Source: a virus (lineage: Duplodnaviria; Heunggongvirae; Uroviricota; Caudoviricetes). From it: 14,720 nt of DNA. The notes beneath the pieces are model-generated. The model was not told the DNA's origin, ran no database searches, and worked only from the letters and a program-made list of their open reading frames with translations. Every line of letters starts with the position of its first letter. Position 1 is the stretch's first letter. Below, one piece after another: positions 1 through 5,449 of the stretch. The stretch lies in IMG/VR virus record IMGVR_UViG_2711768072_000014. One strand, 5' to 3'. Both the position numbers and the translations under genes were made by a program.

Positions 1-1218
1 ATGAACAAACTGAGCGACACATTGCTAAGGAAACTTCATGGTAAGCCAGCGGAGAAAAACACGTTTTATAGTGATGGCGGAAACCTGAGCGTGAAATATT
101 TAACATCAGGGAAATTGACCTGGTATTTCACATACAGGGCCGGAACGGGAAGGGAGACACGACCCGAACGCATTAAGCTGGGAAGTTATCCTGATCTGAG
201 CCTGAAAGCAGCCAGGGAAAAAGCCGCACAGTGTCGCACATGGCTGGCTGAGGGGAAAAATCCACGTCATGAGATGAATTACACCGTACAGGAAGCGTTA
301 AAGCCCGTAACGGTTGGCGATGCGCTCACCTACTGGCTTGAGTATTACGTAAAGGAAAACCGCGTGGATTATATCGCCCTGAAAAGGCGACTTAATAATC
401 ACGTAATACAGCAGATTGGTGCTATGCCGCTGGATAAATGCGAGCTACGGCACTGGCTGGCCTGTTTTGACCAGGTGGCAAAGCGAACGCCTGTTACTGC
501 CGGATTCGTGCTACAGGCGTGCAAACAGGCGCTTAAGTTCTGCCGTAGGCGGCGCTATGCAATCAGCAACGTTCTGGACGATCTGAACGTGGCGGACGTT
601 GGGAAAAAACCGGATATAAGCGAACGTGTCTTAAGTAACAAAGAACTTGGCGAATTATTGCAGGCACTGGACAAAAAAATATTTTCCCCTTACTACGTCG
701 CGTTAATCCGCCTCCTGATTGTCTTCGGAGCCAGGACGGTAGAACTGAGGCTATCGGAGATCGGGGAGTGGGATTTTACGGAAATGCTATGGACCGTTCC
801 GAAGGAGCACAGCAAAACGAAGGTCGCAATATTCCGGCCCATACCGGAAGCGATCCTGCCGTTCGTCACGCAGCTGGTGGAGCAGAACAGGCACACGGGC
901 TTATTGCTGGGGGAAGCGAAACAGGAGGCCAGCGTATCGCAGTATGGAAGATTAGCGCACAGGAGGCTTAATCATCCTCACTGGTCACTGCATGACATCC
1001 GGCGCACCTTTACAACCATGCTGAACGATTTAGGCGTTGATCCGCATGTCGTGGAGCAGCTTACAGGTCATCAGATGCCAGGAATGCAGCGAGTTTATAA
1101 TCATTCCCGTTATCTGGATGCTAAACGCAATGCGCTGGATATGTGGACGGAGCGGTTAGGGATACTGGCGGGAACACATGAAAACGTAACCACGCTACCA
1201 GTAGCCAGAAGAAAATAA
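1..1218 (+). CDS. int: Tyrosine site-specific integrase, P4-like (N-terminal arm-binding domain plus C-terminal catalytic domain)
   Basis: 405-aa ORF. N-terminus FYSDGGNLSVKY...WYFTYR resembles the arm-type DNA-binding domain of P4-family integrases. C-terminus HDIRRTF...LTGHQ...RVYNHSRY carries the R/H/R/Y catalytic signature of tyrosine recombinases. Confidence 0.9.
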   Translation: MNKLSDTLLRKLHGKPAEKNTFYSDGGNLSVKYLTSGKLTWYFTYRAGTGRETRPERIKLGSYPDLSLKAAREKAAQCRTWLAEGKNPRHEMNYTVQEALKPVTVGDALTYWLEYYVKENRVDYIALKRRLNNHVIQQIGAMPLDKCELRHWLACFDQVAKRTPVTAGFVLQACKQALKFCRRRRYAISNVLDDLNVADVGKKPDISERVLSNKELGELLQALDKKIFSPYYVALIRLLIVFGARTVELRLSEIGEWDFTEMLWTVPKEHSKTKVAIFRPIPEAILPFVTQLVEQNRHTGLLLGEAKQEASVSQYGRLAHRRLNHPHWSLHDIRRTFTTMLNDLGVDPHVVEQLTGHQMPGMQRVYNHSRYLDAKRNALDMWTERLGILAGTHENVTTLPVARRK

Positions 1219-1235
1219 TTTTTTTCGTGTTTTTT

Positions 1236-1251
1236 CAGTATGCGCATACTG
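1236..1251. repeat. 16-bp perfect palindrome CAGTATGCGCATACTG just after the integrase stop, followed by ACAA-rich short repeats (to about 1310)
   Basis: Sequence is its own reverse complement. Downstream run ACAACATGCAACAATGAGCAACAATGCGGAACAACTACGAACAA contains CAACAATG twice. Lies in the int-alpA intergenic region. Confidence 0.5.
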
Positions 1252-1592
1252 GATATGCGAACAGATACAACATGCAACAATGAGCAACAATGCGGAACAA
1301 CTACGAACAAGAGGCGAAAAAGTGTACGGATTTATAAGTGGCTGATTTTTAATGTGTTACTGGTTTTTTATACACTAGCGAATCACTCTTTAAATAGCGA
1401 GAAAAAAGGCATGAAACAATATTTTATGCCTTTGTATTAACATGAATTTAAATGATTTTATCCTGATTATTCCTGTTTCTGTAAACCATACGACCTCAAC
1501 ATTTGCCAACTCTGAATCATCCTGACACAATCAGACACATCCCAACGCAATAGAACACGAAATAACTCTTTAAGAAACGAAAGGGGGCAATA

Positions 1593-1781
1593 GTGTTAAG
1601 CACTGATCGGTTTATACGTGAAAAAGAATGCGAAAAGCTAACAGGCCTTAGCCGCTCATGCCGCTACCGCCTGGAAAAGGCCGGACAATTCCCATCACGT
1701 CGTAAACTTGGCGGTCGTTCCGTTGGCTGGTCTTTATCCGAGGTTCTGGCCTGGAAGGATAGCTGCAAGGCAGTTCATTAA
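1593..1781 (+). CDS. alpA: AlpA-family transcriptional regulator / excisionase-like small DNA-binding protein
   Basis: 62-aa ORF with GTG start at 1593 preceded by AGGGGG Shine-Dalgarno. Motif LTGLSRSCRYRLEKAGQFP...KLGGRSVGW matches the AlpA/MerR-type helix-turn-helix signature (LTGLSRSTIYRL..G.FP...LGGRSVRW). Confidence 0.85.
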   Translation: MLSTDRFIREKECEKLTGLSRSCRYRLEKAGQFPSRRKLGGRSVGWSLSEVLAWKDSCKAVH

Positions 1782-1927
1782 TCACGCTGGCGGCACACAG
1801 CCGCCACACATCAATCATCTGAACACAGAGCTATAACCATGAAGATTGAATATACGCCAGAACGTGGGCGGGGATTCGTTCGCCCTGGTGAGACTGGAAA
1901 ACCACAAAATTGGGGTTTTTCAGGCAT

Positions 1928-1955
1928 AAAAAAAGCGGCCCCGAAATGGAGCCGC
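1928..1955 (-). terminator. Putative intrinsic terminator for leftward (minus-strand) transcription
   Basis: GCGGC (1935-1939) pairs with GCCGC (1951-1955) around an 11-nt loop. On the minus strand the stem is followed by a U7 run (A-run 1928-1934 on +). Sits downstream of the minus-strand ORFs at 2051-2461. Confidence 0.35.
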
Positions 1956-2050
1956 CTTTCTGAACAGATAACCCGCTGCGCCGTTTGTGTGTGTGATCCC
2001 AAACATAAGCACGGGGATGATAGCCGCTATCAGGCTGGTGGGCAATGCAA

Positions 2051-2239
2051 TCAGTCTGGTTCAGTTCGTTGCCATACCTGCAATGAGCGCTTTTCCCTGT
2101 ACTCTTTAAGGAATTGCTCAAGGGCAAAAGCACATGGCGCGAATCTTTCTGATTCATGTTCTATCTTTCTGCGCCGTCTTTTCCGTGCCGGTGATAATGT
2201 TTTGGTCAATTCTTTATCGGTCATTGTGTTGTCCTGCAT
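2051..2239 (-). CDS. Hypothetical small basic protein (62 aa), possibly co-transcribed with the RHH gene
   Basis: ORF in the track. Very basic stretch (ARKRRRRK). Lies 42 nt downstream of the RHH gene on the same strand. No clear Shine-Dalgarno. Confidence 0.35.
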   Translation of the reverse strand: MQDNTMTDKELTKTLSPARKRRRRKIEHESERFAPCAFALEQFLKEYREKRSLQVWQRTEPD

Positions 2240-2281
2240 AGCAATGCGCCGTAATACCTTACACCACGGCGCTGATGGTGA

Positions 2282-2461
2282 TTACTCTGGTTCTTTGGCC
2301 TTGCGCCGCTGGCGATATTCAACTTCTCGTTTTAATGCTGCAGTAACAAATTGCCCCGTACTTTCGCCAGGCATTTTTACCGCCTCAACATTGTTCATAA
2401 CTTCATGCGGAACCCTTGCCGCAACGGTTTGTGATTTTGCGTTTACTGCTTTTGTCGCCAT
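2282..2461 (-). CDS. Small ribbon-helix-helix-like DNA-binding protein (59 aa), candidate repressor of the divergent operon; below the size cutoff of the ORF track
   Basis: Translated by hand from the reverse complement: MATKAVNAKSQTVAARVPHEVMNNVEAVKMPGESTGQFVTAALKREVEYRQRRKAKEPE. ATG at 2461-2459 with GAGGGG Shine-Dalgarno 8 nt upstream; stop TAA at 2284-2282. The pattern of a short strand (VAARVPHEV) followed by two helices, and the basic tail, fit an RHH (Arc/CopG-like) fold. Confidence 0.6.
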   Translation of the reverse strand: MATKAVNAKSQTVAARVPHEVMNNVEAVKMPGESTGQFVTAALKREVEYRQRRKAKEPE

Positions 2462-2511
2462 GTGGTGTACCCCTCATAAAAAACAAATGCAGTATGCAGG
2501 AAAAAAAATAA

Positions 2512-2563
2512 GTGTTCAACACTTGACGTGTTTAACACCTGGGTTTAAATTGGTGTTCAACAC
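2512..2563. promoter_or_regulatory. Operator array: three copies of the 11-bp palindrome GTGTT(C/T)AACAC overlapping a candidate rightward promoter
   Basis: Copies at 2512-2522 (GTGTTCAACAC), 2528-2538 (GTGTTTAACAC) and 2553-2563 (GTGTTCAACAC). -35 TTGACG at 2523-2528 and -10 TAAATT at 2546-2551 with 17-bp spacing. Sits between the divergent RHH gene (minus) and the rightward operon starting at about 2661. Confidence 0.6.
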
Positions 2564-2660
2564 CTTGTTGGCGCAAGGTGCAGAAACGACGAAACCCGGC
2601 AGTGCGCTAACACTAACCGGGCTTCTAACCACCAACGATAGCGAAAGTATCGAGGTAGCT

Positions 2661-2864
2661 ATGAGAAATAATACCACACACCCGCAAGGGCGGGACTCGC
2701 ACAACCTGAATAAATACATCTGGCGTTTTATCGCCCTGAGCACGGCACAACCGCGCGTGATTACCATTGAGGCCACCAGCGAACAGGAAGCACGCCAGCA
2801 ATCTCCGGCTGGCTGCGTGATGGTATTCGCTGCCCGTATTCGTCAGGAGGTGCGCCATGATTAA
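2661..2864 (+). CDS. Hypothetical protein (67 aa), possible first gene of the rightward operon
   Basis: In-frame ATG at 2661 preceded by GAGGT. Stop overlaps the start of the next gene by 8 nt. It is the only part of the long 1839-2864 ORF with a plausible start downstream of the promoter. Confidence 0.4.
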   Translation: MRNNTTHPQGRDSHNLNKYIWRFIALSTAQPRVITIEATSEQEARQQSPAGCVMVFAARIRQEVRHD

Positions 2865-3069
2865 TCTGTCACTTACTGACCTTAACCGCATTCAGTTTCG
2901 TGAGAAATTCACAGGGCAGCTACTGGTCAATGTGGATAAAGGTCGCGTGGTGTGTAATTACCACTTACCAGATGAAGCAATTGTCGCCACAAGGGAATCA
3001 TTACAGGAAATCACAAAACGTGCCGGAATGATTAACACGAATATTCAGGGGATGCTTTATGCACAATAA
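2857..3069 (+). CDS. Hypothetical protein (70 aa)
   Basis: ATG at 2857 with strong AGGAGG Shine-Dalgarno 6 nt upstream. Stop overlaps the next start. Confidence 0.6.
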   Translation: MINLSLTDLNRIQFREKFTGQLLVNVDKGRVVCNYHLPDEAIVATRESLQEITKRAGMINTNIQGMLYAQ

Positions 3070-3298
3070 AACCACACCGGACGCAGCCGCCGAAGCCATC
3101 AAAACGCTGATGCACGCGCTGATTGATATTTCTGTTATCGCGGACAGGGCACATAAGCACGCCACCAGCGAAACAGAATATGCCGGTGCTTTCGTTCCTC
3201 ACTCACTGGCTGTCATGCAATTTAGTGCTGATACGGCGCTGAATGAGGCCAAAGCTATCCTGATTGCTGATTGTGAAAATGGGGGGGGTTATGCGTGA
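3059..3298 (+). CDS. Hypothetical protein (79 aa)
   Basis: ATG at 3059 overlapping the upstream stop; AGGGGA upstream. Translationally coupled arrangement. Confidence 0.55.
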   Translation: MHNKTTPDAAAEAIKTLMHALIDISVIADRAHKHATSETEYAGAFVPHSLAVMQFSADTALNEAKAILIADCENGGGYA

Positions 3299-3755: not shown

Positions 3756-4055
3756 ATGAAACTTAAATATTCTGGCTTAACTGCCAGTGGCAACACTCAC
3801 CCTAAATTTACGCGCGGTGATATTTACCGCGACCAGTACGGCGGCACGGTAATGATTAAGGGCGTGGCGGGACGGTGCGTAACTTACCGCCGTGAAGGTT
3901 ACGAATATGATTGCGTGATGCCTGTTTATCAGTTCCGGCGTGATTTTTCTCTGGTACAGACCGCGCCGCATAACGTGCCCACCAGCAACGCCAGGGCACG
4001 GGCAAACATCCAGAAGCTGAAAACCATGATTAACGGATTCAGGGGCAAGAAATGA
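3756..4055 (+). CDS. Hypothetical protein (99 aa)
   Basis: ATG at 3756 with GGAGA upstream. Stop overlaps the start of the replication gene (ATGA). Confidence 0.6.
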   Translation: MKLKYSGLTASGNTHPKFTRGDIYRDQYGGTVMIKGVAGRCVTYRREGYEYDCVMPVYQFRRDFSLVQTAPHNVPTSNARARANIQKLKTMINGFRGKK

Positions 4056-5449
4056 AAAGCGCACCGAACTTAAAAAAACAGCCTTACGACAAGATGACCG
4101 AAGTCATCATTTTTGCGGGTAGTGATGCGTGGGCACATGCGAAACAGTGGCAGGAACAGGACGGGCGACTGGCTGGCGATAATGTGCCTCCCATTGTGCT
4201 GGCTGATGATCAACTGGATGAACTGGCAGACCTGAGAATCATCGACGAGGGGCGCTATTGTGTCCGGCTGTACAAGGCAGGCCACATCAGGCCATCAAAT
4301 ATTAATGCCATTGCGCACAAGCTGGCGGCGGCGGGCGTAACTGATGCGAATTATTACCCCGAAGGGATACACAGCCAGAAGCGGGAGAACTGGCGCGAAT
4401 ATCTGGAACGGGAGCGGGGGAAAAAGCCAGGGGAAGAACACCACCAGCGAAAAACCACGCTACCGATGAGCGTTGGATCTGCCGGATACGACACGCAATT
4501 AGATTACGTGGTAAAGGGGATTATTCCGGCATCGTCGCTATGCAGCATATACGGGGCAAGCGGTTCCTATAAATCATTCCTTGCGGGTTCGTGGGCGTGT
4601 CACGTTTCCACGGGCCGCCAGTGGGGAGGCCGCAGGGTGGCGCATGGCGCTGTTCTCTATGTGGTTGGTGAAGGCGGTATCGGCGTTCCGCGTCGTGTAA
4701 AAGCCTGGGAGGTTGTGCACGGTGAGCAGGTGAAAAATCTGTATCTGGTAAACCGTCCAGTTTTTCCGGCTGTCCCGCTTGATGTTGATGAACTGGTTAT
4801 CGCTGCCCGTCAGGTGGAGCGGGAAACGGGTAAACCTGTACGCATGATTATTCTTGATACTCTGGCGCGTTGCTTTGGTGGCAATGATGAAAATGATTCC
4901 CGTGATATGGGGGCGTTTATCCGTGGGTGTGACGAGCTTAAACGGCGCACAGGGGCCACGGTGCTGGTGGTTCACCATTCCGGCAAGGATGAGACGAAAG
5001 GCGCGCGCGGTTCCAGTGCATTTCGTGCTTCGCTGGATGCTGAATACCGGATACGCAGGGAGGACGCAGGAAGCGAAGCGCTGGTTATCTCATGCACCAA
5101 AATGAAGGACGCGGAGGAACTCAAAGAGGCTGCCTATGATTTGCGGGTGGTGGAGCTTTTTACCGACGCTGACGGGGAGTTAATCACGTCGCTGGTGGTG
5201 GTGGATAAGCCGCGCCCTCCCGTTGAACTGGAGCGCATCGAGGAGGCAGGCAACAAGACGGAAAACCATACCGCACTATGGGGGTGCATCCGTTCACGCA
5301 CACAGAACGGCGACAAGTGCACGATCCCGCTGTTACGTGATGACATGAAACGGCTTGGGTATGACGTGAAAAATATGCGGCGATGGTTAGCCAAACTGGA
5401 AAAAGACGCCGTGATTTACATTGATGGTGATGATGTAGGACCACTGTAA
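4052..5449 (+). CDS. Replication protein with RecA-fold ATPase domain (AAA_25 / RepA-DnaB-like helicase type; PICI Pri-Rep-like)
   Basis: 465-aa ORF. Walker A-like YGASGSYKSF, Walker B-like MIILDTL and LVVHHSGKDETKG are arranged as in RecA-fold replicative ATPases of plasmids and satellites. Immediately followed by an iteron cluster. Confidence 0.8.
   Translation: MKSAPNLKKQPYDKMTEVIIFAGSDAWAHAKQWQEQDGRLAGDNVPPIVLADDQLDELADLRIIDEGRYCVRLYKAGHIRPSNINAIAHKLAAAGVTDANYYPEGIHSQKRENWREYLERERGKKPGEEHHQRKTTLPMSVGSAGYDTQLDYVVKGIIPASSLCSIYGASGSYKSFLAGSWACHVSTGRQWGGRRVAHGAVLYVVGEGGIGVPRRVKAWEVVHGEQVKNLYLVNRPVFPAVPLDVDELVIAARQVERETGKPVRMIILDTLARCFGGNDENDSRDMGAFIRGCDELKRRTGATVLVVHHSGKDETKGARGSSAFRASLDAEYRIRREDAGSEALVISCTKMKDAEELKEAAYDLRVVELFTDADGELITSLVVVDKPRPPVELERIEEAGNKTENHTALWGCIRSRTQNGDKCTIPLLRDDMKRLGYDVKNMRRWLAKLEKDAVIYIDGDDVGPL

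Follow-up and report, generated by a model that had tools for sequence, protein, structure and literature searches.

We found that a hitherto uncharacterized 59-aa gene very probably encodes a ribbon-helix-helix (RHH) repressor that acts on three sites over the promoter of the replication genes in a capsid-forming PICI of E. coli. Judged from sequence, we put at roughly 0.7 the probability that this protein binds the three sites and represses the promoter, P_R. The window, meaning the whole stretch of 14,720 nucleotides that was analyzed, was compared with about 110 related loci, across which the architecture is fixed, while within each locus all sites change together. An earlier note on this DNA had described a minus-strand ORF of 59 aa with a good Shine-Dalgarno, three GTGTTYAACAC sites and a promoter (TTGACG, 17 nt, TAAATT) pointing into a replication operon, and we find all of them at the positions listed in Table 1; the gene is real and conserved. 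P_R heads seven tightly packed genes, with overlapping stops and starts, the last of which encodes a RepA-type helicase. Matches to the region occur in up to 6 places per genome. Both EcCICFT073 and an EcCIEDL933-type cf-PICI, located between roxA and phoQ in E. coli O157:H7 strain F6321, carry the RHH module, and a protein search of the phage collection returned a single record with the module, vB_KppS-Ant, a 16.5-kb "induced prophage". In our literature search, we found no paper linking Gram-negative PICIs with an RHH protein.

Table 1. Features of the switch region, with positions in the window
Feature	Position	Strand	Remarks
alpA	1593..1781	+	Pfam Phage_AlpA, E 5e-18
Long eta-like ORF, 341 aa	1839..2864	+	antisense to orf62 and the RHH gene; spans promoters and operators; continues in frame as the icd-like gene
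Intrinsic terminator of the leftward RHH-orf62 operon	1929..1961	-	weak when read rightward
orf62, second gene of the leftward operon	2051..2239	-	phrog_21027, function unknown
RHH (YlcI/YnfO family) gene, candidate repressor, 59 aa	2282..2461	-	protein MATKAVNAKSQTVAARVPHEVMNNVEAVKMPGESTGQFVTAALKREVEYRQRRKAKEPE
Shine-Dalgarno GAGGGG of the RHH gene	2470..2475	-	read from sequence; 8 nt upstream of the ATG at 2461
Candidate P_L	2491..2519	-	-35 TTGAAC (2519-2514, within O1), 17-nt spacer, -10 CATACT (2496-2491); read from sequence
Operator O1, GTGTTCAACAC	2512..2522	.	adjoins -35 of P_R, overlaps -35 of P_L
P_R	2523..2551	+	-35 TTGACG (2523-2528), 17-nt spacer, -10 TAAATT (2546-2551); consensus scan, 9/12 matches
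Operator O2, GTGTTTAACAC	2528..2538	.	starts at the last base of the P_R -35, fills the spacer
Operator O3, GTGTTCAACAC	2553..2563	.	begins 1 nt past the -10, spans the expected start of transcription
5' hairpin of the P_R transcript, CACCTTG-N6-CAAGGTG	2561..2580	+	computed fold
cis-antisense sRNA (~75 nt) facing the ribosome-binding site and 5' UTR of the icd-like gene	2583..2660	-	covariation, fold, sub-threshold symR; 5' hairpin 2661-2626 (anti-SD in loop), single-stranded GGUGGUUAGA, terminator hairpin 2625-2591, U-rich tail
Icd-like gene, first of the replication operon	2661..2864	+	related to the C-terminal part of P4 eta/kil; NF033153, E 1.4e-19
Extended -10 TGgTATTAT of the sRNA promoter	2668..2676	-	inside the first icd-like codons; T-A-x-x-x-T invariant

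The RHH gene had been called unlisted, and it is indeed missing from the ORF track through a 60-aa cut-off, but RefSeq annotates the gene, naming its orthologue a YlcI/YnfO family protein. A match to NCBIfam NF041551 (59.7 bits, E 2.1e-16, cut-off 30), in which residues 9-50 align to profile positions 1-42 of 42, places the product in this family, which is of modest size, with 79 representatives at 50% identity in a set of 1.84 billion proteins, and includes two uncharacterized E. coli prophage proteins, YlcI of DLP12 and YnfO of Qin. Structure prediction bears out the strand-helix-helix layout that had been read from the letters: the AF2 model (pLDDT 80.6) has an extended segment at 11-17 and helices at 19-28 and 35-56, matching the N-terminal β-strand and two helices of the RHH superfamily. 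Members of this superfamily have a glycine-mediated turn and a G-x-S/T motif, which starts helix B and anchors a phosphate. The motif is found here as well, with G32, E33 and S34 at the start of helix B invariant in 31 homologues and T35 nearly so. The best structural matches are CopG-family chains. Foldseek matches to the PDB were not significant, no RHH-type Pfam family was found at E up to 1, and phmmer and profile searches of PDB sequences returned nothing relevant, leaving the protein with no profile match to a curated RHH family or a solved RHH structure. RHH proteins form homodimers in which an intertwined antiparallel β-ribbon reads the major groove, and we expect that this protein, probably as a dimer, would contact the 11-bp GTG-N5-CAC sites in this way, with a two-stranded β-ribbon (residues ~11-17) inserted in their major groove.

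The sites overlap core promoter elements, with O2 in the spacer of P_R, O3 at +1, and O1 abutting the -35. Because the three of them occupy P_R, RHH bound there should keep RNA polymerase off the promoter of the icd-like/replication operon. When one mismatch was allowed, GTGTTYAACAC matched 7 times in the window over both strands, compared to a mean of 0.53 in dinucleotide-preserving shuffles, none of which reached 7 (0/200); no operator copies above chance level were found elsewhere in the window or in the 6-kb loci. The seventh match, a candidate fourth operator at the start of alpA (GTGTTAAGCAC, 1593-1603), is coincidental, since EcCICFT073 and the O157 element have the same sequence there although their operators differ. 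Measured from the RHH ATG, sites occur at about +22, +67, and +88 to +93 in almost all related loci: O2 is found at +66 to +68 (mostly +67) in any sequence class and O3 at +88 to +93, while O1 (+51) is restricted to the TTCAA class. When loci of a single class are compared, the intergenic region has diverged except for its conserved blocks, which are the operators and promoter hexamers. The TTGAC of the P_R -35 is kept across loci, and at the position of the 5' hairpin of the P_R transcript related loci have an inverted repeat with a variable loop. P_L has weak hexamers and is inferred, since the consensus scan did not report it; its 'cagtat' block is kept in all related loci. As O1 overlaps the -35 of this candidate promoter, autoregulation of RHH is plausible and would be negative. 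The window and its close relatives lack a site at +1 of P_L, whereas most loci have one, which would serve autoregulation instead.

Altogether, 12 operator classes were found, and they follow the β-strand residues of RHH (Table 2). Mutual information with operator class is highest at residue 14 (2.84 of 3.24 bits, z 12.7), followed by residues 5, 12 and 4, with helix positions lower. This points to residues 14 and 12 of the predicted β-strand as determinants of specificity, which is indirect support for a β-ribbon that reads the major groove, and these residues and the site sequence change together. There is no simple one-to-one code, since the K12/S14 and R12/D14 types share the core GTGTCCGACAC and K12/S14 also occurs with a second core, and some co-inheritance is expected through linkage alone because the operators adjoin the N-terminal coding half. 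The pairing of RHH repressor and operators is strongly supported by this comparison, because the operators track the RHH β-strand and not AlpA, integrase or the Icd-like protein. Int and AlpA have the same accessions in EcCICFT073 as in the O157 cf-PICI, yet these two elements differ in RHH protein and operators, and an almost identical Icd-like protein accompanies five operator classes. An Edwardsiella locus has an RHH protein identical over 57 residues and the same operators as the window; its Icd-like protein is 55% identical, and its 3-kb flanks hold no close AlpA or Int (best 31% and 21%). The module is probably an immunity-type cassette, in which the N-terminal half of the protein and the operators are swapped jointly between islands, which would create many non-cross-reacting specificities. 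The earlier suggestion of an autoregulated repressor acting on the palindromes stands to the extent that the 12 classes co-vary with the β-strand and that O1 makes autoregulation plausible.

Table 2. Examples from the 12 classes: β-strand residues 11-17 of RHH and the operator found with them
Residues 11-17	Operator
QTVAARV	GTGTTCAACAC
QALKARV or QSLKSRV	GTGGGCCACAC
KKLEARV	GTGGCTGACAC
QSVTARI	GTGTAAGACAC
QALRARV	GTGTAGACCAC
KKIDVRV	GTGTCAGACAC
QQLNARF	GTGCGATTCAC

Two features come in addition to those of the earlier note, an antisense sRNA over the ribosome-binding site of the icd-like gene and a long ORF antisense to the RHH gene. For the sRNA, 17 of 25 pairs show compensatory changes, values that were reached in none of 500 shuffles, and in the strand test 95.4% of cells were paired versus 80.7%. 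Its fold has a free energy of -36.5 kcal/mol (z -5.25), and the T-A-x-x-x-T of its -10 is invariant in 27 diverse loci even though the proteins encoded opposite differ. It resembles E. coli SymR in its size (~77 nt for SymR), its two hairpins, its start beside the start codon of the opposed gene and its coverage of the ribosome-binding site. The Rfam symR model (RF01809) gives 33.3 bits in the window and 40.4, 34.4 and 32.3 in three related loci (L008, L092 and L007), each time at full length and in the homologous place and strand. These scores lie below 61, the gathering score for assignment to RF01809, and the sRNA differs further from SymR in that its target is the Icd-like gene and not SymE. 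No known RNA family reached its gathering score in the window. For C4, isrK or CI-type RNA in particular, nothing was found at E up to 10 in 1200-3200, so the leader shows no match to the P4 type of RNA immunity (Rfam C4 / isrK), and related loci gave int-alpA RNA matches alone, far from the antisense sRNA region. The sRNA would be constitutive and act in cis as a second lock by pairing with the icd-like ribosome-binding site.

A small RHH repressor and an antisense RNA are combined in two known systems. In plasmid pMV158, CopG acts on the replication-operon promoter and is co-transcribed with repB, and antisense RNA II carries a terminator hairpin over the translation start of the first gene. 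In the immI region of P22 (Mnt, Arc, sar RNA), which controls an antirepressor, a tetramer of the divergent RHH repressor Mnt occupies one operator over the facing promoter, and the sar antisense RNA acts on a downstream ribosome-binding site. The window shares with immI the divergent RHH gene facing its promoter and the small antisense RNA on a ribosome-binding site, but its target is replication genes rather than an antirepressor, and there is no detectable homology. The likeness to pMV158 extends to the structural matches, which are best for CopG-family chains; on the other hand, the RHH gene is divergent where copG lies in the operon with repB, there is no sequence similarity, and the operators come as three or four copies of an 11-bp GTG-N5-CAC unit. 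The pMV158 logic, RHH on the replication-operon promoter and antisense RNA on the ribosome-binding site of the first gene, suggests that the two could serve copy-number or establishment control, shutting down replication after entry or limiting runaway replication rather than maintaining lysogeny. This would suit the finding that uncontrolled replication after AlpA overexpression is harmful to the cell (PMC6092414), but a copy-number role sits less well with an RHH gene that is divergent from the operon it controls and not a member of it, and with the integrated single-copy state, which likewise needs P_R off. We regard it as unlikely, though deserving of real weight. It is compatible with repression of P_R by RHH, our preferred reading.

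RHH could also be a true master repressor in the sense of SaPI Stl, which alone silences the island until a helper-phage protein lifts repression. Helper proteins inactivate Stl, which does not belong to the RHH superfamily, whereas the window has an RHH fold, known induction via AlpA and no known antirepressor. Like the Stl and Rpr master repressors of Gram-positive PICIs (PMC6092414), RHH is divergent and lies between the int side and the replication side. RHH sits over the only recognizable promoter of the replication operon, and its specificity has diversified in an immunity-like fashion, as a master repressor might. However, the helper-responsive regulator of Gram-negative PICIs is the activator AlpA, helper phages raise alpA transcription, and AlpA overexpression alone, without a helper, leads to excision and replication of EcCICFT073 (PMC6092414), and no antirepressor is indicated by sequence. 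Since this element carries the module, RHH is neither the sole gate nor the dominant block. We therefore consider an Stl-type role improbable, and the "master switch" awaiting a helper signal that had been proposed for this gene is unsupported. The difference between Gram-negative and Gram-positive PICIs has been termed a mystery (PMC6092414).

The frame of the long rightward ORF is stop-free opposite the RHH gene in all 89 distinct sequences, 80 of which also lack a stop in the intergenic stretch, and wobble bases that would create a stop are avoided (0/358); as read from these sequences, selection keeps this ORF open. P4 offers a close parallel. Its immunity region (P_LL as late promoter, vis, nested eta/kil, P_LE as internal promoter, CI RNA) likewise lies between int with an alpA homologue and the primase/helicase genes, and a long ORF there encloses an internal promoter together with a short gene nested in its C-terminal part. 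The frame that selection holds open in the window is equivalent to eta, whose translation from the upstream promoter prevents termination in P4 (PMC10111431). The Icd-like protein and P4 ORF137 have phrog_1743 and phrog_29966 in common, and the link rests on these profiles, the BLASTP match being weak (E 0.15). The two regions differ in that P4 immunity depends on a sense-strand processed CI RNA that causes termination, without a protein repressor, whereas the window has the RHH gene antisense in the long ORF, protein operators on the internal promoter and a regulatory RNA that is cis-antisense, with no C4, isrK or CI-type RNA detected. Opposite P4 eta, we found no RHH-like ORF.

An open frame opposite RHH raises the question of which strand is read. 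If the 59-aa frame were a shadow of the long ORF, the plus-strand product would be the one to co-vary with the repeats, and it is true that every change at RHH residue 12 or 14 also alters the opposite frame, which selection holds open in all 89 sequences. The RHH frame is nevertheless better conserved (BLOSUM62 3.26 vs 2.60 per site) and has its own Shine-Dalgarno, conserved ATG and conserved length. In several loci (L008, L035, L041 and L064), the plus-strand frame is broken in its intergenic part while RHH and operators are intact, and residues 1-250 of the long ORF had no family match in Pfam, PHROG and PADLOC scans. We hold the shadow explanation to be very improbable. Slightly harder still to sustain is a type II toxin-antitoxin pair of RHH and orf62, the small gene next on the same strand, with the repeats as a merely autoregulatory operator. 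We reject it for want of a conserved partner gene: tblastn gave no match to orf62 in 37 loci (L002-L038), and orf62 is not conserved outside the E. coli group, its place in other loci being taken by a 69-aa gene, a 126-aa gene or nothing. Furthermore, orf62 has no PADLOC or Pfam match, and it is the divergent promoter, rather than that of RHH itself, that has the best-conserved sites. That the repeats bind AlpA, a DNA-binding activator (PMC6092414), or the Icd-like protein, with the small ORF irrelevant, is scarcely credible, given that AlpA is identical where the repeats of EcCICFT073 and the O157 element differ, that loci share a nearly identical Icd-like protein but not their operators (five classes), and that the PHROGs label 'transcriptional repressor' of phrog_6196 and phrog_1743 for the Icd-like protein derives from the legacy 'cI gene product' annotation of P4 ORF137, P4 immunity being now ascribed to the CI RNA (PMC10111431).

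Repression by RHH at P_R leaves the route of induction to be explained, and we suggest that it probably proceeds without removal of RHH, which would hold the internal promoter off while AlpA-driven transcription from upstream bypasses it. The AlpA-dependent transcript would pass the terminator at the end of the leftward operon, stay translated along the eta-like ORF antisense to RHH, and enter the replication operon independently of P_R, as transcription from the P4 late promoter does. This terminator is asymmetric, with -25.5 kcal/mol (z -4.1) followed by U7 on the minus strand and -15 kcal/mol (z -1.55) on the plus strand. The basis for a bypass is this asymmetry, together with the long ORF kept open, the P4 precedent (PMC10111431) and the sufficiency of AlpA (PMC6092414). 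Taken alone, read-through from AlpA as a bypass of P_R falls somewhat short of an even chance in our estimate. More speculatively, Gram-negative PICIs including the laboratory prototype EcCICFT073 and the O157:H7 cf-PICI may contain an overlooked three-layer, face-to-face switch, made of an RHH immunity repressor gene antisense in an eta-like ORF, operators on the internal replication promoter and a SymR-like antisense RNA. AlpA-driven transcription and translation of the long ORF would run head-on into the repressor gene, silencing it and bypassing the operators in one act, and the dual-coded stretch would be under selection on both strands. As a whole, this scheme is tentative and, in our judgment, unlikely to hold in every part.

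The dual-coding antisense stretch provides direct sequence evidence of selection on a second frame, which is of a rare kind. Should the pairing of RHH and operators be confirmed, the natural protein-operator pairs, roughly 12 in number, would be a ready set of small orthogonal repressors, and they would explain how several related islands can reside in one genome without cross-repression. The module is present in the laboratory elements EcCICFT073 and the O157:H7 cf-PICI of EcCIEDL933 type, so the question is open to test in existing strains. If our reading is true, Gram-negative satellites would gain the repressor that was supposedly missing from them.

We found the three 11-bp candidate operators (pattern GTGTTYAACAC; O1, 2512-2522; O2, 2528-2538; O3, 2553-2563) and the hexamers of the rightward promoter P_R at the positions given by the earlier note, and the pattern is matched 7 times in the window compared to 0.53 matches expected, a count reached by none of 200 shuffles. 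In P_R (TTGACG, 17 nt, TAAATT), O1 abuts the -35, O2 fills the spacer, and O3 extends from 1 nt past the -10 over the expected start, a geometry that argues for repression by occlusion. Since the genes between 2661 and 5449 run into one another with overlapping stops and starts, P_R stands at the head of the whole early/replication operon. For the 59-aa minus-strand gene beside the operators (2282-2461; here the RHH gene, for the candidate ribbon-helix-helix repressor that it encodes), we propose a promoter with the -35 TTGAAC, which lies within O1, and the -10 CATACT. A dedicated site directly past this leftward -10 is present in most relatives and is lost from the allele group of the window, which has O1 instead. 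A conserved inverted repeat with loops that vary in other loci (CACCTTG-N6-CAAGGTG, window 2561-2580, plus strand) opens the predicted transcript from P_R; it could stabilise the 5' end as a hairpin or be a further protein site.

The 59-aa ORF and its Shine-Dalgarno sequence were confirmed; the gene is already annotated under the RefSeq name YlcI/YnfO family protein and passes the NCBIfam cut-off. No function is assigned to it in PHROGs (phrog_949, "unknown function") or in the literature searched. The family is small, with 79 cluster representatives (50% identity) among 1.84 billion proteins, and every named match comes from Enterobacterales. In an AlphaFold2 model built with 31 homologues (pLDDT 80.6), residues 11-17 are extended and residues 19-28 and 35-56 form helices, and the turn G32-E33-S34 preceding the second helix is invariant in these homologues. 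Searches of curated RHH profiles and PDB sequences gave no match, and a Foldseek search with the model gave no significant one. We therefore consider the fold supported, but not decisively so on structure alone.

To compare the arrangement across elements, we assembled related loci from species-representative genomes (31), viral contigs (80), and an exact protein look-up (6), along with EcCICFT073, a prototype Gram-negative PICI, and the capsid-forming PICI (cf-PICI) of O157:H7. The layout of the locus is essentially fixed (see the table), the site sequence varies among loci, and the copies inside one locus change in concert. We distinguished 12 operator classes, each of which is paired with a particular RHH beta-strand sequence; within a class found across genera, operators and promoter hexamers are identical, while the intervening bases have diverged. 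We computed mutual information between RHH protein columns and operator class for 32 collapsed alleles; residue 14 gave the highest value (2.84 of 3.24 bits, z 12.7), residues 5, 12, and 4 came next, and the helix columns scored lower. This is exactly the pattern predicted for an RHH protein that would read DNA by its ribbon and N-terminal arm. A near-palindrome at the alpA start codon (window 1593-1603, GTGTTAAGCAC) is operator-like, but we rejected it as an operator; the likeness is coincidental, since elements of other operator classes carry the identical sequence. In two Xenorhabdus loci, the stretch upstream of the RHH gene carries deletions whose end-points fall within the operator repeats; the -10 is gone from L013 and the entire rightward promoter from L022. 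Both have the look of decayed copies and suggest that the operator repeats are prone to recombination.

Features of the window and of the conserved locus layout (positions marked + are distances from the RHH ATG along the opposite strand)
Feature	Position	Strand	Remarks
Tyrosine integrase	1-1218		first in gene order
AlpA regulator	1593-1781		after integrase
Long ORF, 341 codons	1839-2864 (stop-to-stop from 1783)	plus	icd-like frame extended upstream
Cis-antisense sRNA, ~75 nt	2583-2676, including promoter -10	minus	opposite icd-like leader/ribosome-binding site
RepA/AAA_25 helicase	4052-5449		closes a series of small, overlapping genes
HK97-type capsid, protease, portal, connectors, HNH, terminase			after helicase
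Operator site	about +22		adjoins conserved "cagtat", the leftward promoter -10
Rightward promoter -35 TTGAC	about +62		
Operator site	about +67		begins on last base of -35
Rightward promoter -10 TAnnnT	between sites at about +67 and +88 to +93		
Operator site	+88 to +93		

We then asked which protein the operators follow. EcCICFT073 and the O157:H7 element have one integrase (WP_000085269.1) and one AlpA (WP_000953274.1) in common; the former pairs the RHH strand QALKARV with the operator GTGGGCCACAC, the latter QQLNARF with GTGCGATTCAC. Near-identical copies of the window's Icd-like protein, encoded by the first gene of the replication operon, accompany five operator classes. Conversely, a locus in Edwardsiella hoshinae (L002, 2767-3171) encodes an RHH protein identical over 57 residues and carries the same three operators as the window; its Icd-like protein is 55% identical, and within its 3-kb flanks AlpA and integrase have only distant matches (31% and 21% at best), which points to mosaic exchange of a putative RHH-operator cassette across genera. 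An E. coli locus differs from the window only in the N-terminal RHH half and the operators, and matches it in the C-terminal half (96%) and in the Icd-like protein (91%). The unit of exchange in these decoupled loci is therefore the "N-terminal half plus operators", as it is in phage immunity regions. Together, these sequence comparisons show site specificity co-varying with the RHH strand residues alone and not tracking the neighboring proteins. The Icd-like protein (window 2661-2864) and an ORF of P4 (8168-8584) have phrog_1743 and phrog_29966 in common. The PHROG label "transcriptional repressor" for the Icd-like family appears to derive from this obsolete P4 "cI gene product" ORF and is no evidence of DNA binding by Icd-like proteins. 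A toxin-antitoxin reading of the RHH gene and its downstream gene was rejected because the latter is not conserved.

The long ORF runs antisense to orf62 and the entire RHH gene and over the operators, promoters, and leader into the icd-like gene, and PGAP annotates part of it as an 'Icd-like pseudogene'. Among 89 distinct sequences, the plus-strand frame that has its third codon positions in register with the RHH ones is stop-free antisense to RHH in 89 and through the 175-nt intergenic stretch in 80, whereas the other two plus-strand frames average 2.7-2.8 and 4.2-4.8 stops in these stretches, respectively. A stop in the long-ORF frame can arise only if an RHH CAN or TAN codon is preceded by a T-ending codon (or a C-ending one, before TAN). 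Over 76 distinct coding sequences of RHH, the wobble base was T before CAN in 0 of 358 cases and T or C before TAN in 0 of 23, compared to a T share of 21% at third positions elsewhere in the gene; therefore, the opposite frame is held open by selection. Of the two frames, that of RHH is nevertheless more strongly conserved (BLOSUM62 per site, 3.26 versus 2.60 in the long-ORF frame). By eye, the start of the long ORF in EcCICFT073 and the O157 element looks like a Bro-N-type N-terminus. Read leftward, the terminator that separates alpA from the leftward operon is strong (-25.5 kcal/mol, z -4.1, then U7); read rightward, it is weak (-15 kcal/mol, z -1.55). In the P4 eta paradigm, a long ORF is coupled to the alpA homologue, with an internal constitutive promoter and a nested short product, and its translation from an upstream promoter prevents termination (PMC10111431); the long ORF here fits both this paradigm and the "Bro zone" of Gram-negative PICIs (PMC10111431).

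Opposite the icd-like leader, the Rfam symR model aligned end-to-end at sub-threshold scores in the window (33.3 bits) and at the corresponding position of three related loci (40.4, 34.4, and 32.3 bits). The minus-strand -10 (T-A-x-x-x-T) is invariant in 27 diverse loci, where it lies within the first icd-like codons, even though these encode unrelated N-termini. Compensatory changes support 17 of 25 pairs in the two hairpins; none of 500 shuffles matched any observed measure, and slid controls were ~40% paired. G-U pairs decide the strand of the sRNA in favor of the minus strand (95.4% of cells paired with 101 G-U, versus 80.7% with 2 G-U on the plus strand), and a U-rich tail is found on the minus strand only. 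The 5' hairpin loop displays an anti-Shine-Dalgarno, and the window's sRNA folds at -36.5 kcal/mol (z -5.25). Dual logic combining an RHH protein and an antisense RNA has precedents in pMV158 and P22 immI.

By its RefSeq annotation, the window is a cf-PICI of the type described in bioRxiv 10.1101/2022.09.08.507074, and in 178 complete E. coli genomes megablast finds elements that cover 80% or more of its length. The basic 62-aa protein of orf62 (2051-2239, minus strand; phrog_21027), on the same transcript as RHH, is conserved in E. coli elements only, EcCICFT073 included. Immediately past the alpA stop codon is a hairpin without a T-run (GGCGGC-acaca-GCCGCC, 1789-1810, plus strand), which may be relevant to read-through or antitermination. 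The Rfam int-alpA RNA motif (RF02996) exceeds its gathering score in the int-alpA spacer of several related loci (L003, L005, L007, L018, and L037), and none was detected in the window's own spacer.

AlpA acts as an activator in EcCICFT073: helper phages raise its transcription, its overexpression alone leads to excision and uncontrolled replication, and the authors saw no evident global repressor (PMC6092414); cf-PICI induction likewise needs alpA (bioRxiv 10.1101/2022.09.08.507074). EcCICFT073 also carries the RHH module, so RHH is no dominant lock, and the "master switch" of the earlier note was overstated. We propose instead that RHH would repress P_R and its own gene, while the sRNA would block icd-like translation from leaky transcripts. 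Upon induction, AlpA-dependent transcription from upstream, kept translated via the long ORF, would reach the replication operon whatever the state of the operators and, on its way, may also switch off the convergent RHH gene.

An RHH repressor acting on promoter operators is a familiar device. What would be new is a repressor role for the YlcI/YnfO family, a repressor module in prototype Gram-negative PICIs previously without a known repressor, and a repressor gene nested antisense in an ORF kept open by selection. Unlike P4, which relies on RNA immunity, the homologous region here would hold a protein-operator cassette in its place, which is likewise new. The RHH-operator module should be of real interest to those who study satellites, and it lends itself to direct testing.
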